DNA of 11,029 bases from a virus (IMGVR_UViG_2671181094_000005), one strand, 5' to 3'; shown: positions 741 to 11,029, counted from the first letter of the stretch. A program made the numbers and translations. The notes: generated from the sequence alone by a model not told the origin.

Positions 741-3185
741 TCAGCTGATACTGATACCTGCTGTGGATTTCTTCATCACCACAACCAGCAAATCACTGAT
801 ACTGGCTGTGGGATACCAGTCATTTACCAGCCACGCTGATACCGAAAACTCCAGCGTCATGTGACCGTGACCGGCAGGCATATCAATAACACCTGTATAA
901 ACCAGCGTATTATCCAGCGCGGTACGGTTATAAATTTCAGCACCGTTTTTCTTCACTATCAGGCGGCATGACGAATAAATATCGTTATTCTCCCGCTCAT
1001 GTTTAGCGTCACGAAACGCCACCGTGGGAATAACAATCTGCCGGTCAAACGGCTGATCGTCATAAACCCTGACGGTAATGGTCCCTGATGGCCACCGCTC
1101 CGGTGCACGGGAGTCCCGGGGGAAAGCTTTGCCCACTGTTTTAACGAGATCGCCTTCAATCTGGTTCGCAGACAGTTTTCCCAGAACCCGACAGTTTTCA
1201 TTTATCGTGACATTGTTGAGCGTCCCGGCGTTCGCATTCACACTGCCACTGATATCCGCATTTTTCGCCGTCAGTCGCCCGTCCGGTGTAAGGGAAAATG
1301 CAGGAGGATTACCGCCGCTGGTAATGGTGGGAGCCGTCAGGCGTTTCAGGAACACGTCGTTCATGAATATCTGATCACCCTGACCAACAAACATCGGCTT
1401 TGTGTTGCCATTCGCAGGATTAATCATCGCAATCCTGTCTGCCGCCAGCAGCACCTGACTCTGCATTCCTGCTGGCGTATTCTCAATACCGGCACCGATA
1501 CCCGCAATATAAAGGCGTCCGTCCTGCATCTGCTGCAGTTTCACGGCCCACATGCTGTTCAGGTTATTATTTGTATCAACCTGAACCTTCTGTATCTGCT
1601 GGATCGCTGCACTCTGGTCTTCCAGTTTCTTATTGACGGTCTGTGTGATTTCATTGCTGACATCCGTAATGGATGTCCTGATTTCAGCCAGGTCAGGCGC
1701 AAGCTGACCGTTATCAATCTGCGTCCACAGCTCCTGAGCCAGATGGGTTTTCCCTATCTCGCCTTTGAAAAAATCCAGATAGCCGGATGCGTCATCACTC
1801 GGCTGACCAACAGCCTCCACGAATGCCGATTTGCCAACGGTGTTCACACTGCGGATATAAAAGTAATAATCATGGCCCGGTTTGATATTGATACTGGCGG
1901 CTATCCAGTACAGCCCCGCACCAAGGTAGCGGGCTGTGGTTTCAACCTGCCTGATATCGGTAATCCGCGTTTCCGAGAACCAGAACTCAAACTGTACCGT
2001 CGGATCATAAACCGCAAGATGCGGCGTGGCAGTTATCTGAAAATAGCCCGGCGTCAGCTCAATCCGCGACGGTGCTACCGGTGCGGCAATCCGGAACGAT
2101 ACCGACGCCGGATCGCCCTGCTGTCCCCACGCATTTACCGCCCGGACTGTCAGCGTGTACCGTCCCAGCGCCAGTTGCGTGAAGCGGTATGTGGTTTCTG
2201 TCGTCCGGGCCGTGCTGACCAGCCGCTCACTGCCGTCGTCCGCTGCCACGGTCAGGCGAAGCATAAAGCTCACCCCCTTCACCACCTTCGGCGTGTCCCA
2301 GCGGGCCAGTACCTGATACTCCCCGCTGTCTGCGGTGACTTCGGCAGTCAGGTGCTGCACCGCTGGCGGCGTGACACCATTCACCGTGCCGCTCTGGTCG
2401 CCGTCAAAGTGCGCCCCGTTATCCACGATGGCCTCTTTTTCCGGCACATGCTGCACGGCGGTGATGGCATACGTGCCGTCGTCGTTCTCACGGATACTCA
2501 CGCAGCGGAACAGTCGCTGGCGCAGCGTCGGCAGCTTCAGCCCCCATACGCTGTATTCAGCAACACCGTCAGGAACACGGCTCACTTTTACCTTCACGCC
2601 GTCGGTGACGGACTGAACCTCCACGCTGACCGGACTCCCCTGCCCGTCAACCAGGCTTATCAGCGTGGTGCCGGAAGATGGCAGCGTGATTTCACGGTCG
2701 AGCGTCAGCGTCCGGGTCTGGCTGTTTACCGCCAGCACGCGCCCGCCGGTGCTGATACCGGCATAGTCATCATCGCAGATTTCAATGACATCGCCCGGTA
2801 CATGGCGAAGCCCTTCAGCACCCACGCTGAAATCCACGGTCTGCGTCTCCAGCAGTTCCGTTTTAATCAGCCACAGCCCGGCGCGGTGTGCCTGCCCCCG
2901 GCTGGTACAGCCAAAGGCATCCATCTTCGTGACATTACGACCGTAACGGGCAATGGCCTGCGTATCTTCAACAAGCTCTGTCGCCGTCTCCCAGCCGTTG
3001 TTCGGGTCAATCCAGTTCACCTCAACGGCATTATGGCGGTCCTTCAGGGCGCTGAAGCTGTAGCGGAACGGCGCGCCATCATCCGGCATCACCACATTAC
3101 TGCGGTTATAGGTCCACACCTTATCTGATGGTCGGTCCTGCACGAACGTCAGCGTCTGCCCGTTCCATACCGGCATACAGCGCAT
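741..3185 (-). pseudogene. J: Tail tip / host specificity protein J, N-terminally truncated (C-terminal ~815 codons only)
   Basis: Long minus-strand ORF whose translation from [22 protein letters not shown] onward is colinear with roughly residues 318-1132 of lambda gpJ (recalled from memory, identity not computed), including the fibronectin-III-like central region; the last ~130 residues diverge. Upstream of codon MRCMP the same frame hits a stop (3225-3227) and the preceding sequence is terminase-derived in another frame, so the J N-terminal third is absent. The ATG at 3212 in the ORF track is fortuitous. Confidence 0.8.
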
Positions 3186-3186
3186 C

Positions 3187-3519
3187 ACTGGCTTTAAAGG
3201 GATCCGGTTCATTACGGTAGCCGGTCATGGCATCCATGGCTGGCTGAAAATATTCACCGCAGTGCGGACATGGCCAGTACCAGCGGCGGCGGTCACCACG
3301 ATTGTAAAGGGAAAGAATACCAGTCGTCGGTGGCGCTTCATGAGGCGACTTACGTCGCCATTTGCTGTCGCAGATGTCACGTCCCGGCGAGCTCTCCACC
3401 AGAGTCATCCCGGCGGACATAAATGTGGTGGTACGTTTTGAGGCCTGGGAGAAACCATCACCCTCGCTGTCGATATTCTCCGGAAAACGGTCGTAATCGG
3501 TTAAGGCGACAAACCGGTA
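3187..3519 (-). pseudogene. Terminase large subunit (lambda gpA-like) internal fragment
   Basis: Translation ...YRFVALTDYDRFPENIDSEGDGFSQASKR...WYWPCPHCGEYFQP... resembles the middle of lambda gpA (DDDIEQEGSPTFLGDKR ... HVACPHCGEEQYLKFGD, zinc-finger-like CPHCGE motif), recalled from memory. No proper start codon; frame differs from the upstream Nu1-like fragment and the downstream J fragment. The 99-aa track ORF 3121..3420 is the tail of this frame running into J-derived DNA. Confidence 0.55.
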
Positions 3520-4435: not shown

Positions 4436-4728
4436 TTTGTCGCTCCATGCGTTTGCTCTTCACTTACGGCTAAAAATATAACGTCAAATCACTCAGCATG
4501 AAAGAGTTAAAGATTCAGCGCGTTTCCCTTACATAATCTGTCGTTTGTATTCTCTTCAGGCATACCGGAAAGACTAGGTATTGTCACACAACCAATACCA
4601 TCGACAATCGAGATTTATACCTATTCGGTAATGTTTAAATATAACAAAACCCCGTAAAAACGAGGTTTATGGGTAATTTGTATTGTTGAATAGCATCTGA
4701 TGAGAAATTGATGCTAATACTAAACAGA

Positions 4729-4902
4729 CTAGATTAAATCAATCTTGATATCATAGCTTTCAAGACCAGTCATTTTTTCCCGTGCAGTAAACTGGATACT
4801 GGTAACTTCTTTCCCGGTCTTTTTCTTAAGCTCAATGATTTTTTTTGTTATATATTCAGAAATATCTGCTTCTATTTTTGTTTTTAACTCTTCAATGTTC
4901 AT
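4729..4902 (-). CDS. GnsA/GnsB family protein (57 aa), diverged GnsB-like paralog
   Basis: Translation from the second ATG (4902): MNIEELKTKIEADISEYITKKIIELKKKTGKEVTSIQFTAREKMTGLESYDIKIDLI, colinear with E. coli GnsA/GnsB (MNIEELKKQAETEIADFIAQKIAELNKNTGKEVSEIRFTAREKMTGLESYDVKIKIM, from memory). AGAGGA Shine-Dalgarno upstream; the ORF-track start at 4995 is an upstream in-frame extension. Confidence 0.7.
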   Translation of the reverse strand: MNIEELKTKIEADISEYITKKIIELKKKTGKEVTSIQFTAREKMTGLESYDIKIDLI

Positions 4903-5074
4903 CATTTCCTCTTTTAGTCTGTTATGACTTTCCTGGTACACAGTAGTGTCAATTATATGGAGCAAACGTATAAAAGATAAGATGAAACATCGCAATAATC
5001 AACATACGACGGTCTAAATTTCACACAAACAGATAAAGATGATTATCATTTATTATCAATGCATTAGAATCAAA

Positions 5075-5266
5075 TCAATTCAAGAGTCTCATTGCTGCTT
5101 CCAGAATTTCTTCTGAAGTTACATGTCGATCCGCTGCTACATAAATGACTTTATGATCTCCGGTCAGAGATGGAAACCCTGCAGCCATTACAGTGAGGTG
5201 TGTTGTTTCGCCATTTGGATATTCACGCATGATGGTGTTAACTCCGGTCATCACTGGCACTACCAT
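5075..5266 (-). CDS. Hypothetical small protein (63 aa) between cspI and the GnsB-like gene; possibly a YnfN/YmcE-position gene
   Basis: ORF with ATG at 5266 but no clear Shine-Dalgarno. Its position between a csp gene and a gns gene mirrors the cspG-ymcE-gnsA and cspI-ynfN-gnsB arrangements recalled for E. coli K-12. The call is positional only; the sequence is not recognised. Confidence 0.3.
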   Translation of the reverse strand: MVVPVMTGVNTIMREYPNGETTHLTVMAAGFPSLTGDHKVIYVAADRHVTSEEILEAAMRLLN

Positions 5267-5348
5267 TGCTGGTTCAGAGTTAAAAAAACTATTATTTTTT
5301 TCATAATGTTACCGTAATATGTGAGTATCCATCGACTAGACACTAAGC

Positions 5349-5369
5349 AAAAAAGCTCCCGAAGGAGCC
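5349..5369 (-). terminator. Rho-independent terminator (UUCG tetraloop hairpin plus U6)
   Basis: Minus strand reads AGGCTCC-TTCG-GGAGC-TTTTTT: 5-bp GC stem, UUCG tetraloop, six U. About 200 nt downstream of the cspI stop and about 80 nt upstream of the 63-aa ORF. Confidence 0.5.
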
Positions 5370-5575
5370 TTCATTTTCACTTTCTTAAATCTAACGATAG
5401 ACGGCTAACATTTAAGTATTGTGAAATATTATCAAATGTAATCATCATTGATTTACAAAAGATACATTTTGCCCCGAAAGGATTCCTGTCAGAAACATCA
5501 AAAGATGATGTTCTATACTGAGAACCATGGCAACACGGGCATCTAAAGTGAATATGGTTTGTAATATTTTCTACC

Positions 5576-5788
5576 TCAAAGTGCCACAACATGAACAGCC
5601 GCGGGGCCTTTAGGTCCGTTCTCAATACCAAATTCGACTTCCTGATTCTCAGTTAACGTTTTGAAATCGTTGCTCTGAATAGCTGAGAAATGGACAAACA
5701 CATCTTTGCTACCATCTTTCGGCGTGATGAAACCAAAACCTTTTTCAGGGTTAAACCATTTCACTAAACCAGTCATTGTGTTAGACAT
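5576..5788 (-). CDS. cspI: Cold shock protein, CspA family (CspI-like)
   Basis: 70-aa product [70 protein letters not shown] matches recalled CspI almost exactly, with RNP1 (KGFGFI) and RNP2 (VFVHF) motifs. AAAGGTAATA sequence ahead of the start as in cspA. Alternative ATG one codon upstream at 5791. Confidence 0.85.
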
Positions 5789-5938
5789 CATTATTACCTT
5801 TTGAAGAAGTTAGCCCTTGGGCAGAATGGTCCGAAAAAAAATATCAGAGAGAAAAACCAACAAGGAAATCTCAAGAGGTACAAATAATAAAATTATAACA
5901 ATGACTGCTTCAGATAATTTTGTAACAAACCAGAACAC

Positions 5939-5968
5939 CATTAACGCATGATTAACCAACCATAGCAA
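5939..5968 (-). promoter_or_regulatory. Candidate cspA-type promoter (-35 TTGCTA, -10 GTTAAT/TTAATG) preceding a ~145-nt 5' UTR with cold-box-like element
   Basis: Minus strand: TTGCTA (5963-5968), 17-18 nt spacer, then TTAATG (5939-5944), followed by GTGTTCTGGTTTGTTACAAA. This resembles the cspA promoter and cold box (TTGCAT ... CTTAATG CACATCAACGGTTTGACGTACAGA, from memory). The long UTR is typical of cold-shock genes. Confidence 0.4.
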
Positions 5969-6151
5969 GGATTACTTTTGTAAAGAAAAACACACGAATG
6001 AAACAATAGCTTTATTTATTAATAAAACGTGTCATTCTGTCTAATGACCTTTTATCTTACCCTTAAGATTTCAAGGATTTTGACTCATGGAAGAGTCCTT
6101 TTTATTTAAATTTCACATTCAGCGCTAAAAATAATCCGATTTAATATTAAT

Positions 6152-7292: not shown

Positions 7293-7553
7293 ATGGATTA
7301 CACAAATCTACCTAAACAAACTTTTGCTGATTTAATCGCACTCAGGCAAGCAGTCGTAGCTCTAATCAACTTGTTGCCGGAGAAGGAAAAGGAATTAGTT
7401 AAAGCGCTTCTTAACAGAACTGCCGCCGATTTTTCATCATATCCACTGACAGATGACCTTGCGGACCTTCCTGAATTAATTGCAGCGTCCGCCAATAAGC
7501 TTACTGAAGAGATTTACCCTCCTCAAAAATCTTCACAAAATTCCTGCGAGTAA
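7293..7553 (+). CDS. Hypothetical small acidic protein (86 aa) on the opposite strand inside the lysis cassette
   Basis: ATG at 7293 preceded by ACAGAGG Shine-Dalgarno at 5-nt spacing; stop at 7551-7553 followed about 20 nt later by a hairpin plus T8. Predicted helical, net acidic. Uses several rare codons (CTA, AGG, AGA) and overlaps the 3' end of the convergent DUF1327 ORF by 53 bp, so coding status is uncertain. Confidence 0.4.
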   Translation: MDYTNLPKQTFADLIALRQAVVALINLLPEKEKELVKALLNRTAADFSSYPLTDDLADLPELIAASANKLTEEIYPPQKSSQNSCE

Positions 7554-8052
7554 CTTCAATGCAATAATCGTAAAACGCCGCAAACTGCTCATCGCGGCGT
7601 TTTTTTTCATCTTCAGAAGGAATCAGCACCGACAATTTTTTATTCAGATCAGCGACGCTGCCCTCCAGTTTTTCAATGGGCGATTCAATATCATCTTTTT
7701 CTGACCGCAATGCCGTCGGTGGCGTCTTCAGAGAACCAGTAATTCTTCCCGGTAGCTTTCCTTTGTAGGTTATCCACACATTCTGCGCCTCTAAAATTAT
7801 GGGGCGCTTTTCCGGCGACTGCTCATCCCCTTCACATAACCCGGCAGCAACATCCAGGAAGACCTGTCTGATGCTCCTTCTGGCTGCTGCCTCATAAAAC
7901 TCCAGCGCGGCACCTTCAACACGGTCCAGCGAGATGTCCAGGTCAAAAATTTCACCGTCAAAGTGTTTTTTGTCCCGTAAGGCTACAGTTACCGCCACTT
8001 TATTCTCAAAATTGCGAACTCCTTTCACAACCAGTTCATAGTCTTGAGTCAT
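7501..8052 (-). CDS. DUF1327 (YdfR-like) lysis-cassette protein, apparently with a C-terminal extension (183 aa)
   Basis: ATG at 8052, 4 nt after the holin stop. The N-terminal ~70 residues (MTQDYELVVKGVRNFENKV...EGAALEFYEAAARRS.RQVF) resemble E. coli YdfR as recalled; the remaining ~110 residues are not recognised. The ORF-track start at 8073 overlaps the holin and is less likely. Confidence 0.6.
   Translation of the reverse strand: MTQDYELVVKGVRNFENKVAVTVALRDKKHFDGEIFDLDISLDRVEGAALEFYEAAARRSIRQVFLDVAAGLCEGDEQSPEKRPIILEAQNVWITYKGKLPGRITGSLKTPPTALRSEKDDIESPIEKLEGSVADLNKKLSVLIPSEDEKKRRDEQFAAFYDYCIEVTRRNFVKIFEEGKSLQ
7575..7607 (+). terminator. Rho-independent terminator-like hairpin after the plus-strand small ORF
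   Basis: Stem ACGCCGC (7575-7581) / GCGGCGT (7594-7600), 12-nt loop, then 8 T (7600-7607). Lies inside the coding sequence of the minus-strand DUF1327 ORF; on the minus strand only 4 U follow the stem. Confidence 0.4.
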
Positions 8053-8056
8053 TGGA

Positions 8057-8272
8057 TTACTCTCTTCTCGCAACCTTACGCCTGTCTTCTTTAATCTTGA
8101 AATAAAGGTTTGTCAGATACGTCAGCATGCCAAATACCAGACTACCCAATACACCTATTGCCGCCCACTGTGAGGGCGTGACTTTATCGAGCAACTGTAA
8201 AAACCAGTAGCCAGCACTGCCTGCAGAGGTGCTGTAGGCGATGCCCGTTGTTAACTTATCCATGGATTTCAT
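8057..8272 (-). CDS. Class II holin, phage 21 S21-like pinholin (71 aa) with dual-start motif
   Basis: [71 protein letters not shown]: two transmembrane segments and a charged C-terminus, colinear with S21/EssD as recalled. Met1-Lys-Ser-Met4 dual-start arrangement (antiholin/holin). Strong GGAGGTGA Shine-Dalgarno 4 nt upstream of the ATG at 8272; the 99-aa track ORF is an upstream extension. Confidence 0.85.
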
Positions 8273-8363
8273 AGCCTCACCTCCGCAGATAACGGATGGT
8301 GTACACGGTTTGGTTCGAAGAAGGAAAGAAGTTACATTAGCGTAAGGCCCGAACATCTATTCA

Positions 8364-8394
8364 AAAAGAAAAACGCCAGCAATTATTCTGGCGT
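8364..8394 (-). terminator. Rho-independent terminator downstream of the AraC-family gene
   Basis: Minus strand: stem ACGCCAG / CTGGCGT (8373-8379 and 8388-8394) with 8-nt loop, followed by TTTCTTTTT. About 70 nt after the regulator stop and about 90 nt before the holin start. Confidence 0.5.
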
Positions 8395-8462
8395 AGCTAA
8401 AAATATCGTATAATCTTACACTTCAAAAAATAACTTTATAAAATGCCATCACATCATATCTT

Positions 8463-9176
8463 CTAAGAAAATCTTGATAAATATTGGTGCGGAGGCACAC
8501 CAAAATATCCTCTAAAAACACTTACAAAATATGATGCATTGTCATACCCGCATATTCCCGCCACCTTGCCGACAGTATGGTTACTGTAGATCAATAATCT
8601 TTGCGCCATCATCATTCGTTCTTCAAGAATTAATTTACTAAACGATAATCCTTCGTCTTTTAATTTTCTTTTTAACAAACTCTCGCTCATATATAATCTT
8701 GAAGATATATCACAAAGTCTCCATGACGCTGAGATATCCGAGTGAATAATAGCCTTAACTTTACAACCTAAGCTATTAAGACTTCCGAACAAAAAACTTT
8801 GCACTATTTTCTCTGAAGATAAGACAGCAAGACATGCAAGTGATATTTGATTTCTAACTACATCCACGGTTTTGCTATCACAATTCAAGCATGCAACCAA
8901 GTTCCTTAACAATGAAAAATCTTCACATTCTACTATCAAGTATGACGGATAAAACCTTCTTACAGAAAAAGGTGAGAGTGTGTAGTTTTTAAAGAAATCA
9001 TTAACTGTTTTCTCCTCAATATCTACGATCATTAGATGATCTGTATTTGACGAAAAAAGATCTTTTAAATTGTATTCAATGAGGACAGCATTTCCTTTTT
9101 TAAACAAAATATCTTCTTTACCAATTCGGACACCAAACGAGTTCAACACCAAAATGATAGAACATATGTATGGCAT
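8463..9176 (-). CDS. AraC/XylS-family transcriptional regulator (AppY/EnvY/Rns-like), AT-rich
   Basis: C-terminal AraC-type double helix-turn-helix (...WRLCDISSRLYMSESLLKRKLKDEGLSFSKLILEERMMMAQRLLIYSNHTVGKVAGICGYDNASYFVSVFRGYFGVPPHQY). N-terminus MPYICSIILVLNSF resembles AppY MDYVCSVVFICQSF (from memory). Most likely start is the ATG at 9176 with AGGTGGA Shine-Dalgarno; the ORF-track start at 9185 is a GTG. Strongly AT-rich with a ~400-bp AT-rich upstream region. Confidence 0.8.
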   Translation of the reverse strand: MPYICSIILVLNSFGVRIGKEDILFKKGNAVLIEYNLKDLFSSNTDHLMIVDIEEKTVNDFFKNYTLSPFSVRRFYPSYLIVECEDFSLLRNLVACLNCDSKTVDVVRNQISLACLAVLSSEKIVQSFLFGSLNSLGCKVKAIIHSDISASWRLCDISSRLYMSESLLKRKLKDEGLSFSKLILEERMMMAQRLLIYSNHTVGKVAGICGYDNASYFVSVFRGYFGVPPHQYLSRFS

Positions 9177-9582
9177 ATTATCCACCTGATATCATTGGGG
9201 TTACACCAGGTAAGTATAGGTGGAAAATCAATATTCGCCAGTTCAACAATAAGGAAAATCTCATTGCATCACAACTATAAAACCATGTGTTTAACTCACA
9301 AAAAACAAATCATTAAACTAATCTGTTATATTATAATAGCTGCGTGCAATAATAATATTATATGCTCTTTATATTCACTTGAAATATCTTCATATAAAAA
9401 CAGATTGAATAAAATCTTTTGGGGCTGGTATGTTTACCAACATTAAATTGCATCTCAATGTTTTCTTTAGCGTGAACAGGATTTTTATAAAAACTGACAC
9501 TATGAGCATCATAGCGTAGTTTTTACGATTGTAAATATCCTGCATACAGGAACTCATCACTTTCAGATGATATCGCATACAG

Positions 9583-10542
9583 TTAATTCACCATCAGTCT
9601 TAGAGCCAGTTCTTCCGGATAGGGATCGAAGTAATTCTGTGTAAGCAAGTAATCATTAGGATACTCACCCAGATAATGCTTCAGCAGAGTCAACGGCGCA
9701 AGAAGAGGCAATGTGCCAAAGCGATAGTTAAGTATAACCTCGCTCAACTCTTTACGCTGGCGTGTACTTAAGTAATTACTAAAATACCCCTGTATATGCA
9801 TCAGCACATTCGTGTGATTTTTACGTGATGCTGGTTTTCTGAGAATCGCCATCAGATTATCACGATACACCTCAAAGTATGATTCAAGGTCCGCCCACTC
9901 GTGTATTGCAGCCACAAATGGTCCCATATCTTTATAGCCTGCCTGGCTATGCGCCAACAACTGAAGCTTATAACGACTATGAAAAGCTAATAACTCTCTT
10001 CTTGATAATTTCTCCTTGTAAAGGTGATTGAGCTCATGCAAAGCAAAAACTCTTTCAATAAAATTCTCACGAAGCACTGGATCATGTAATCGCCCATCCT
10101 CTTCAACCGGTAGCCAGGAAAACTTTTCCATCAAAGTGCTCGTAAATAGTCCCACTCCATCTTTACGACCTCGATTACCATTTTCATCATAGACACGCAC
10201 GCGCTCCATGCCACAGCTGGGAGATTTAGCACAAACCACAAACCCCGATACATCCTTTAATTTGTCCATATAAGAACGACTAAACTCTGTCATTCTCTCT
10301 GTCACATCCTCATTCTGGTCGTGGCTGAAACACATCCGTATATTTCCTTGCTTCGAGCGCACAAGTCGTAGAGCAGGACGCGGAACTGGCAGCCCTATAG
10401 CCATTTCCGGACATACTGGTCTGAATGTTACCCATTCCACTAATTTGTCCATTAAAAAGTCATCTCTTTTGTGACCACCATCAAAACGAACAGCAGAACC
10501 GCCCAAACAACCGCTGATCCCAATCACAGGTTTTTTTATCAT
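9583..10542 (-). CDS. DUF523 (TudS-like thio-nucleobase desulfidase) fused to DUF1722 (YbgA-like) protein, 319 aa
   Basis: N-terminal half carries three Cys in the contexts expected for the [4Fe-4S]-binding DUF523/TudS fold (GISGCLGG, PVCPE, KSPSCGM); the C-terminal half is a helical DUF1722-like domain. ATG at 10542 with GGGGGAGG upstream. Domain assignment is from motif recognition, not a profile search. Confidence 0.7.
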   Translation of the reverse strand: MIKKPVIGISGCLGGSAVRFDGGHKRDDFLMDKLVEWVTFRPVCPEMAIGLPVPRPALRLVRSKQGNIRMCFSHDQNEDVTERMTEFSRSYMDKLKDVSGFVVCAKSPSCGMERVRVYDENGNRGRKDGVGLFTSTLMEKFSWLPVEEDGRLHDPVLRENFIERVFALHELNHLYKEKLSRRELLAFHSRYKLQLLAHSQAGYKDMGPFVAAIHEWADLESYFEVYRDNLMAILRKPASRKNHTNVLMHIQGYFSNYLSTRQRKELSEVILNYRFGTLPLLAPLTLLKHYLGEYPNDYLLTQNYFDPYPEELALRLMVN

Positions 10543-10732
10543 TTCCTCCCCCTTGACTAATTCATTAACACATAAACTTTGTAGTGCACGGACTAAATTG
10601 CCTTTCTGGCTTCATCACTGACAATTTTTCTGTTATTGACTATTCCTAATATAGTAGGAAAGTTCTTTAAGTGATCGGTCGTACTCATCTATCTTTCATA
10701 CTTACTCTCAACTATCAAAAGTACAGGATTTA

Positions 10733-11029
10733 GGTGATGCTGCCAACTTACTGATTTAGTGTATGATGGTGTTTTTGAGGTGCTCCAGTGGCTTCTGTTT
10801 CTATCAGCTGTCCCTCCTGTTCAGCTACTGACGGGGTGGTGCGTAACGGCAAAAGCACCGCCGGACATCAGCGCTATCTCTGCTCTCACTGCCGTAAAAC
10901 ATGGCAACTGCAGTTCACTTACACCGCTTCTCAACCCGGTACGCACCAGAAAATCATTGATATGGCCATGAATGGCGTTGGATGCCGGGCAACTGCCCGC
11001 ATTATGGGCGTTGGCCTCAACACGATTTT
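10733..11029 (+). mobile_element. IS1 insertion sequence, left end (partial; continues beyond the window)
   Basis: Sequence from 10733 (GGTGATGCTGCCAACTTACTGATTTAGTGTATGATGGTGTTTTTGAGGTGCTCCAGTGGCTTCTG...) matches the IS1 left inverted repeat and the 5' part of insA as recalled. Only the left ~300 bp of the 768-bp element is in the window. Confidence 0.9.
10788..11029 (+). CDS. insA: IS1 InsA (transposition repressor / N-terminal part of InsAB' transposase), partial
   Basis: GTG start at 10788; translation (M)[79 protein letters not shown]... matches IS1 InsA with its zinc-finger Cys pairs. Truncated by the window edge. Confidence 0.85.

Follow-up and report, generated by a model that had tools for sequence, protein, structure and literature searches.

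An AT-rich AraC/XylS-family regulator gene upstream of the holin in a Qin-type prophage of Escherichia coli

Introduction

AraC-like regulators carried by prophages, such as AppY, PatE and PsrA/B, are among the clearest examples of phage genes rewiring core stress and virulence circuits of Escherichia coli. PatE (Z0321), encoded in OI-8/CP-933H of O157:H7, and PsrB directly activate gadE and hdeA(B); for both, direct activation of hdeA (at -132 to -45) and of gadE is accompanied by raised acid resistance, while PsrA/B repress type III secretion via GadE (PMC10877973). AppY, encoded in DLP12 of K-12, regulates AR2 genes, and H-NS is one of several regulators on which the expression of appY depends (PMC10057817). 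Similarly, psrA goes up once Hha/H-NS silencing is countered (PMC13502914). Here we describe a further regulator gene, located on an 11,029-nucleotide (nt) stretch of viral DNA (IMGVR_UViG_2671181094_000005, called the window below and meant at its full length). An earlier note on this DNA, made from the sequence alone, had drawn attention to positions 8463-9582 as an AT-rich AraC-family regulator immediately upstream of the holin, in the position that stx occupies in Stx phages, and had compared it to AppY, PatE and the Psr regulators. We find that the class of the regulator and its cargo slot are both familiar, whereas the branch to which it belongs is widespread but uncharacterised.

This slot, the interval between the late antiterminator gene Q and the holin gene (Q-to-S), is a hot spot that also accommodates the stx operon, nmpC in DLP12 and cspB/cspF in K-12 Qin, in each case in late orientation and with atypical base composition. 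The type of cargo differs, with a regulator here as opposed to a toxin, a porin or a cold-shock protein. For stx, dependence on Q read-through is proven. What is said here of PatE and the Psr regulators derives from reviews, and the Sakai sequences were used for comparison; Sakai ECs_0287 is taken to be PatE, since Sp1, which corresponds to the CP-933H/OI-8 prophage that carries Z0321, has no other regulator of this kind.

Results

An intact and AT-rich regulator gene

The regulator gene lies on the minus strand at 8463-9176 and encodes 237 amino acids plus the stop codon. The product is identical to WP_001146313.1, the 237-residue protein that RefSeq annotates at the identical locus. A mechanical open reading frame (ORF) call spans 8463-9185 (minus strand) and uses GTG 9185 as the start. 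We rejected this GTG in favor of ATG 9176 because it falls within a conserved Shine-Dalgarno sequence, AGGTGGA (9181-9187, minus strand), located 4 nt 5' of the ATG; the CAGGTGGAT..ATG block is kept in four diverged cassettes.

As the earlier note had proposed, the gene and its upstream region are markedly AT-rich. The regulator ORF has a GC content of 33.5% (30% at third codon positions) and the 406-bp upstream spacer of 31.0% (32.6% combined, the region being 67-69% AT), compared to 46-56% in lysis and structural genes (46-52% for lysis, ~55% for J and lom) and 45.7% for the whole window. The 1120-bp stretch formed by gene and spacer is the lowest-GC stretch of its size, with only 1.8% of sliding 1120-bp windows lower, all of them overlapping it. 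The csp/gns region (4500-6150) is almost equally AT-rich at 30-39% GC; it is a second cargo block of the prophage and holds the cspI leader, ynfQ, ynfN and gnsB.

Full-length copies (237-248 residues) were found at 78 of 80 IMG/VR loci, and pairwise ratios of nonsynonymous to synonymous substitution rates (dN/dS) of 0.17-0.25 reveal purifying selection. The regulator is therefore an intact, selectively maintained gene. These results, together with the atypical GC content, run opposite to what the earlier note had named as grounds for abandoning its proposal, namely a pseudogene in related genomes or a composition typical of the surrounding prophage.

A two-domain member of the GadW/YdeO/AppY/PatE/Psr clade

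Both Pfam HTH_18 (3.1e-16) and HTH_AraC (6.1e-11) matched the protein above their gathering scores, and the C-terminal ~100 residues with two helix-turn-helix motifs that characterize the AraC/XylS family are present. An AlphaFold (AF2) model, with a mean predicted local distance difference test score (pLDDT) of 86 and a predicted template modelling score (pTM) of 0.78, comprises, from N- to C-terminus, a small beta/alpha domain, a linker of helices and a DNA-binding domain of seven helices. Residues 136-235 of this model superpose on the GadX DNA-binding domain with a root-mean-square deviation of 1.1 A, confirming, along with the Pfam matches, the AraC-family identity given in the earlier note. 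The GadX domain is also among the sequence matches in the PDB (4e-21), as are CsvR, Rns and ToxT. The latter three are the full-length Foldseek matches for the model, and their two-domain layout is alike with sequence E-values of 1e-18 to 3e-12. Nevertheless, their identity is 16-22%, the template modelling score (TM-score) ~0.45 and the domain orientation different, with a shorter N-terminal domain in the window protein.

BLASTP alignments with PatE-like proteins, PsrA, GadW, AppY and YdeO cover residues 1 to ~235 and include the N-terminal motif M-x-x-[VIT]-C-S-[VI]-[IV], which is common to GadW, YdeO, AppY, PsrA and ECs_0287 (AppY and the window protein share it as MxxVCSV). Identity is 86% to the homologue in phage IdasGreatGrand, 77% to that in phage 1H12, 60% to the homologue P0013 and 50% and 47% to the PatE-like P0016 and P0017, respectively. 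It drops to 39% for PsrA (Sakai ECs_1087, a 237-residue ORF), 34% for GadW, 31% for EnvY, 30% for AppY and 29% for YdeO, and is ~40-41% for the GadX DNA-binding domain. The homology search that the earlier note had called for, against AppY, EnvY, PatE, GadX and Rns, thus bears out kinship with AppY, PatE, the Psr regulators and GadX. The protein is a two-domain AraC/XylS regulator of the GadW/YdeO/AppY/PatE/Psr clade.

Orthology to YdeO, GadX, PatE or PsrA was rejected on scores and identity. The best NCBIfam match, YdeO, covers the full length at 112.3 bits against a cut-off of 348, and GadX scores 89.8 against 500; because these scores are far below the equivalog cut-offs, the protein is an orthologue of none of the chromosomal acid-resistance regulators GadW, GadX and YdeO. 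These three belong to the same subfamily, while the window protein is phage-borne. Among the studied relatives PatE, also carried by a prophage and similar in size, comes closest at 47% identity over the full length, but in a neighbor-joining tree the clade of the window protein is the sister of the PatE clade, in which P0016 and P0017 group with ECs_0287. Identity to the PatE-like proteins amounts to 65% in the DNA-binding domain and 33% in the N-terminal domain, and recognition helix 3 agrees with theirs in 11 of its 12 positions. PsrA and PsrB are 90% identical to each other, and a Psr protein would be expected to resemble this pair closely; PsrA is of the same clade, but its 39% identity to the window protein, falling to 24% in the N-terminal domain, places the latter outside. 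AppY is likewise of the same clade, prophage-encoded and AT-rich, and acts on host acid-resistance and other genes; it differs in its 30% identity and in its location, since appY is found not in the Q-to-S interval but at the prophage end, past the genes for the tail fibre.

In relatives, the gene occupies the Q-to-holin cargo slot

The stretch belongs to E. coli and represents a defective prophage of the Qin type. The whole window is collinear with the defective prophage beside rspB in E. coli strain 127, shares the essQ-to-gnsB module with K-12 Qin and holds all of its substantive genes on the minus strand. From high to low coordinates, these are a YbgA-like gene, the 406-bp spacer, the AraC-type gene, a terminator and the holin gene essQ, followed by a DUF1327/ydfR fusion, the rrrQ lysozyme gene, rzpQ/rzoQ, cspI, ynfQ, ynfN and gnsB, and beyond gnsB by a terminase fragment fused to a J fragment and then lom. 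The holin gene (class II, S21-type; 8057-8272, minus strand) is the first lysis gene and starts 190 bp 3' of the regulator stop codon, in agreement with the adjacency noted earlier.

No Q gene is present within the window, as the earlier note had also recorded; Q and the putative late promoter and terminator lie just outside in relatives, and in the collinear genomes Q would start ~390 bp past the window end. Strain 127 has, in this order, Q (82-type, 125 residues), a lipocalin gene on the opposite strand, the YbgA-like gene, the AraC-type gene and the holin. The same order was found at 70 of the 80 IMG/VR loci, the other ten being cut by contig ends, and the lipocalin and YbgA-like genes accompany the regulator in all 70 complete cassettes. 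It recurs in the isolated phages 1H12 (Jouyvirus) and IdasGreatGrand and, with a 76%-identical regulator, at four more lambda-like prophage loci with replication, nin and lysis genes. Three of these four run on into terminase and portal genes; the fourth is IS1-disrupted past the lysis genes. The homologues P0013 (60%) and P0016 (50%) are directly 3' of two other Q families, without ybgA or lipocalin; P0016 is then directly followed by the holin, and the P0013 contig ends just past the gene. In the PatE clade, P0016 thus sits in the same Q-to-holin slot, and it does so with the same terminator.

In relatives, a strong terminator (-14.9 kcal/mol) in Q orientation lies ~100 nt past the Q stop codon and may be tR'-like. 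This agrees with the pR'-tR' layout of phage lambda.

The insert has two hallmarks of a moron. It lies between conserved phage genes and is missing from related phages with the same neighbors, and its base composition is unlike that of the phage backbone (32.6% vs 46-56% GC). Where the window carries the regulator, K-12 Qin, with the same essQ, ydfR, rrrQ, rzpQ, cspI and gnsB module, carries cspB/cspF, and DLP12 carries nmpC. Homology to K-12 Qin resumes only ~30 nt 5' of the holin ATG, which defines the downstream edge of the cassette.

Other members of the family occupy this slot as well as a second one. The Psr genes of O157:H7 are found 3' of Q in lambda-like prophages, and PsrA of Sakai Sp4 is 3' of Q and 5' of the ileZ-argN-argO tRNAs. 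In phiSTEC1575-Stx2k (L106, 7001-9324), a Psr-like homologue (38%) is 3' of Q and directly 5' of three tRNA genes, past which come stx2A, stx2B and, further on, the holin. By contrast, the PatE-type gene is at the tail-fibre end in Sakai and in phage mEp332 (L107, 3992-4744; 46%), not between Q and S. Given the Psr-like gene by stx2k and the PatE-like genes at the tail-fibre end, the family uses both classic lambda-like cargo sites. As relatives sit between Q and the holin and a Psr-like gene shares the stx2k interval, the description of the locus as the position of stx is a fair one. Psr prophages also carry effector loci and Pch regulators, with pchA near psrA in Sakai Sp4; the 30 kb around the regulator in strain 127 revealed neither effector nor pch genes, and the window cassette, unlike the Psr loci, carries the lipocalin and YbgA-like genes.

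Gene and spacer are present at at least 80% nucleotide identity in 973 of 5426 complete E. coli genomes (~18%, close paralogues included). Every copy is chromosomal, and 864 of the 973 carriers cover at least 80% of the gene and spacer length. A single match was obtained among GTDB species representatives, a 3.2-kb contig (L025, JARKOR010000151.1) with 84% identity to the regulator; it was binned in a Candidatus Nanosynbacter metagenome-assembled genome, most likely in error, and would then be from an E. coli phage. RefSeq names the protein "helix-turn-helix domain-containing protein", PHROGs lists it as phrog_1450 of "unknown function", and no mention of the accession WP_001146313.1 was found in the papers searched.

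Promoter-like site, probable leader and terminator

The AT-rich spacer (9177-9582, minus strand; 31% GC) has conserved ends and a variable middle with indels, and probably includes a leader of ~325 nt. The top promoter-like site within 8000-11029 is found here, at 9508-9535 (minus strand): TTTACA and TATGAT separated by 16 nt, matching the consensus at 10 of 12 positions. Both hexamers and the spacer length are invariant in all allele classes, 76%-identity cassettes included, while the flanks vary. A hairpin (9497-9517, minus strand; -13.5 kcal/mol, z = -6.1) overlaps the -10 element and might act 3' of the ybgA-like gene as a weak terminator or attenuator. Across alleles, the stability of this hairpin varies between -16 and -2.6 kcal/mol. 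We prefer to read the block at 9497-9535 as the putative promoter of the regulator, from which the leader length follows, since the hexamers are invariant and the stability of the hairpin is not; for the same reason, a ybgA terminator is less favored.

The cassette ends with an intrinsic terminator (8363-8394, minus strand), which consists of a 7-bp GC-rich stem (8394-8373) and a T-run (-11.3 kcal/mol, z = -2.9). Between 8000 and 11029, five terminator-like sites including this one were detected, where 1.9 are expected. The terminator was found at every locus with this AraC clade 5' of the holin, including the locus of the 50%-identity paralogue (L021), and is absent 5' of the holin in K-12 Qin, DLP12, Sakai Sp4 and the Stx2k phage. 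That it is a general part of the module upstream of the holin was rejected on account of these four loci, where the holin has no AraC neighbor. Linked to the AraC gene and absent at holins without one, the terminator belongs to the cassette, and the gene has its own terminator as the earlier note had said. Plausibly, it insulates the holin from transcription of the cargo. No Rfam match was detected within 8400-9600; the sole match in the scan was a cspA-type leader at 5549-5946. Taken together, we regard the identity and architecture of the cassette as close to certain.

Proposed action on host genes, and the alternatives

We think it probable that the cassette is a moron, a self-contained cargo unit of lambda-like phages, that is expressed and acts on host targets as outlined here. 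The unit would comprise a promoter, a ~325-nt leader, the AraC-like gene and the terminator, set between Q and the holin. In a lysogen, transcription would start from the AT-rich promoter of the cassette, probably at a low level and probably repressed by H-NS as for appY and psrA (by analogy with these two genes, such repression is plausible), and the terminator would hold this transcription out of the holin. Upon induction, Q-modified polymerase would start 3' of Q and, as for stx, reach the lysis genes by passing through ybgA, the AraC gene and the terminator, running antisense across the lipocalin gene on its way. The protein would bind AT-rich host promoters via its two helix-turn-helix motifs and activate them. 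The likeliest targets would be the acid-fitness island promoters of gadE and hdeAB, as for PatE and PsrB. For this specific acid-resistance regulon, which is drawn from homology whereas the activation of gadE/hdeAB by PatE is experimental, we would call the matter near even at best.

Several observations weigh against this proposal or parts of it. The putative promoter is a consensus match only, and the hairpin overlaps it. The H-NS nucleation motif (TCGATAAATT-type) is not enriched, with 14 instances in the window compared to 14.8 expected and one in the region of the regulator. All full-length identities to studied relatives are below 50%, and the N-terminal domain is 24-35% identical to theirs, so that the regulon or the signal could differ. 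At its C-terminus, the window allele is 6 residues shorter than its paralogues owing to a change in a T-run, with the shortened end past the last helix of the DNA-binding domain. Finally, late read-through may not occur in this particular copy because IS1 separates the cassette from wherever Q is and the prophage is heavily deleted, with most morphogenesis genes lost.

The divergence of the N-terminal domain, only 33% identical to that of PatE and 24% to that of PsrA, might instead reflect a regulator that is directed at the host but controls a regulon other than the GAD genes of the acid-fitness island, for example a pleiotropic set such as that of AppY, or one that itself responds to a small ligand bound by this domain, as Rns, CsvR and ToxT do to fatty acids. 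The full-length structural neighbors Rns, CsvR and ToxT are fatty-acid-binding regulators, and AppY, of the same clade, acts pleiotropically on E. coli physiology (PMC10057817). On the other hand, the near-identity of recognition helix 3 to that of PatE and the 65% identity of the DNA-binding domain argue against this reading, the studied prophage members PatE, PsrB and AppY all regulate AR2 acid-resistance genes, and ToxT and Rns have a longer N-terminal domain. We consider a different host regulon unlikely, though worth keeping in mind.

Many AraC-family proteins control adjacent genes, and the regulator could accordingly act locally on the co-travelling ybgA-like desulfidase gene, the lipocalin gene or both. 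The association of the three genes is strict in the 70 complete cassettes, for the clade at at least 84% identity, and the trio is kept in isolated phages too. However, the 60% and 50% homologues are found 3' of Q without ybgA or lipocalin, PatE-like copies stand alone at the phage tail-fibre end, and PatE, PsrA/B and AppY act on host genes where studied. A local role is therefore improbable.

The location directly 5' of a class II holin gene and a DUF1327 gene, kept behind three unrelated Q families, makes it conceivable that the regulator serves the phage by bringing in an environmental input, possibly ligand sensing via the Rns/ToxT-like N-terminal domain, that tunes late/lysis expression or induction. 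This is a long shot; if it were true, the Q-to-S interval of lambda-like phages would contain a point of control that had so far gone unrecognised. The same location would suit a regulator of the phage life cycle that tunes late or lysis expression, for example the timing of the holin, and leaves host genes alone. Such a role is at least as remote, given the conserved terminator between regulator and holin, the operation of the same lysis module without the regulator in K-12 Qin (with csp genes) and DLP12 (with nmpC), a composition unlike the phage backbone and the presence of family members at the far end of prophages. That the gene is a decaying, non-functional relic of a dead prophage is barely credible and was rejected, for although the surrounding prophage is reduced to fragments such as those of terminase and J, insertion sequence (IS) elements interrupt the gene or spacer in some genomes and the window allele is shortened, nearly all copies are full length with dN/dS ~0.2, many genomes have the identical protein annotated, orthologues are carried by viable phages and the shortening spares the last DNA-binding-domain helix.

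Should the regulator drive gadE and hdeAB, as we propose, it would commonly modify the acid resistance of commensal and pathogenic E. coli, and do so variably from strain to strain; it would in addition be co-expressed with the lysis genes upon induction. The branch with its close paralogues is carried by about one in six complete genomes as well as by viable temperate phages. Such a regulon would be of use to specialists, though unsurprising to them.

Neighboring genes and insertion sequences

Upstream of the regulator, the YbgA-like gene (9583-10542, minus strand) encodes a DUF523/TudS-type 2-thiouracil desulfidase domain and DUF1722, and is cargo that travels with the regulator. The lipocalin of the cassette is Blc-like (L001, 16736-17260); PHROGs classes both the YbgA-like protein and the lipocalin as of unknown function. 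The same prophage as this lipocalin contains a truncated epoxyqueuosine reductase (QueH) gene 5' of ydfU and Q (L001, 18939-19376), such that QueH and the TudS-like gene are two cargo genes related to nucleoside modification in the L001 prophage.

The high-coordinate end of the window is the left end of IS1 (GGTGATGCTGCC...; 10733-11029, plus strand), and the window stops inside this element. The insertion point is 2 nt 5' of the position of the lipocalin (blc-like) start codon in collinear genomes. None of the 5426 complete E. coli genomes contains the exact IS1 junction as one piece. Elsewhere (L018, L019, L017, L016 and L032), IS elements have hit the cassette repeatedly, with IS1 in the AT-rich spacer, IS2 just past the putative -10 element and IS2 between ydfR and the holin. 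IS3 is found inside the regulator gene in at least four genomes and also in ybgA.

Below the holin, the DUF1327/ydfR ORF (7501-8073) is a 190-residue fusion in which the C-terminal part bears no relation to YdfR, and RefSeq labels it a pseudogene with a missing C-terminus. An 86-residue ORF (7293-7553) on the opposite strand is annotated as a hypothetical protein. The leader at 5549-5946, 5' of cspI, is a cspA-type thermoregulator (Rfam RF01766, 109 bits). Nearly all head and tail genes are gone from the prophage, and a deletion scar is visible at 741-3420, where a fragment of the terminase large-subunit gene (3121-3420) abuts a J tail-tip fragment (741-3212) that is devoid of its N-terminus; lom is intact.

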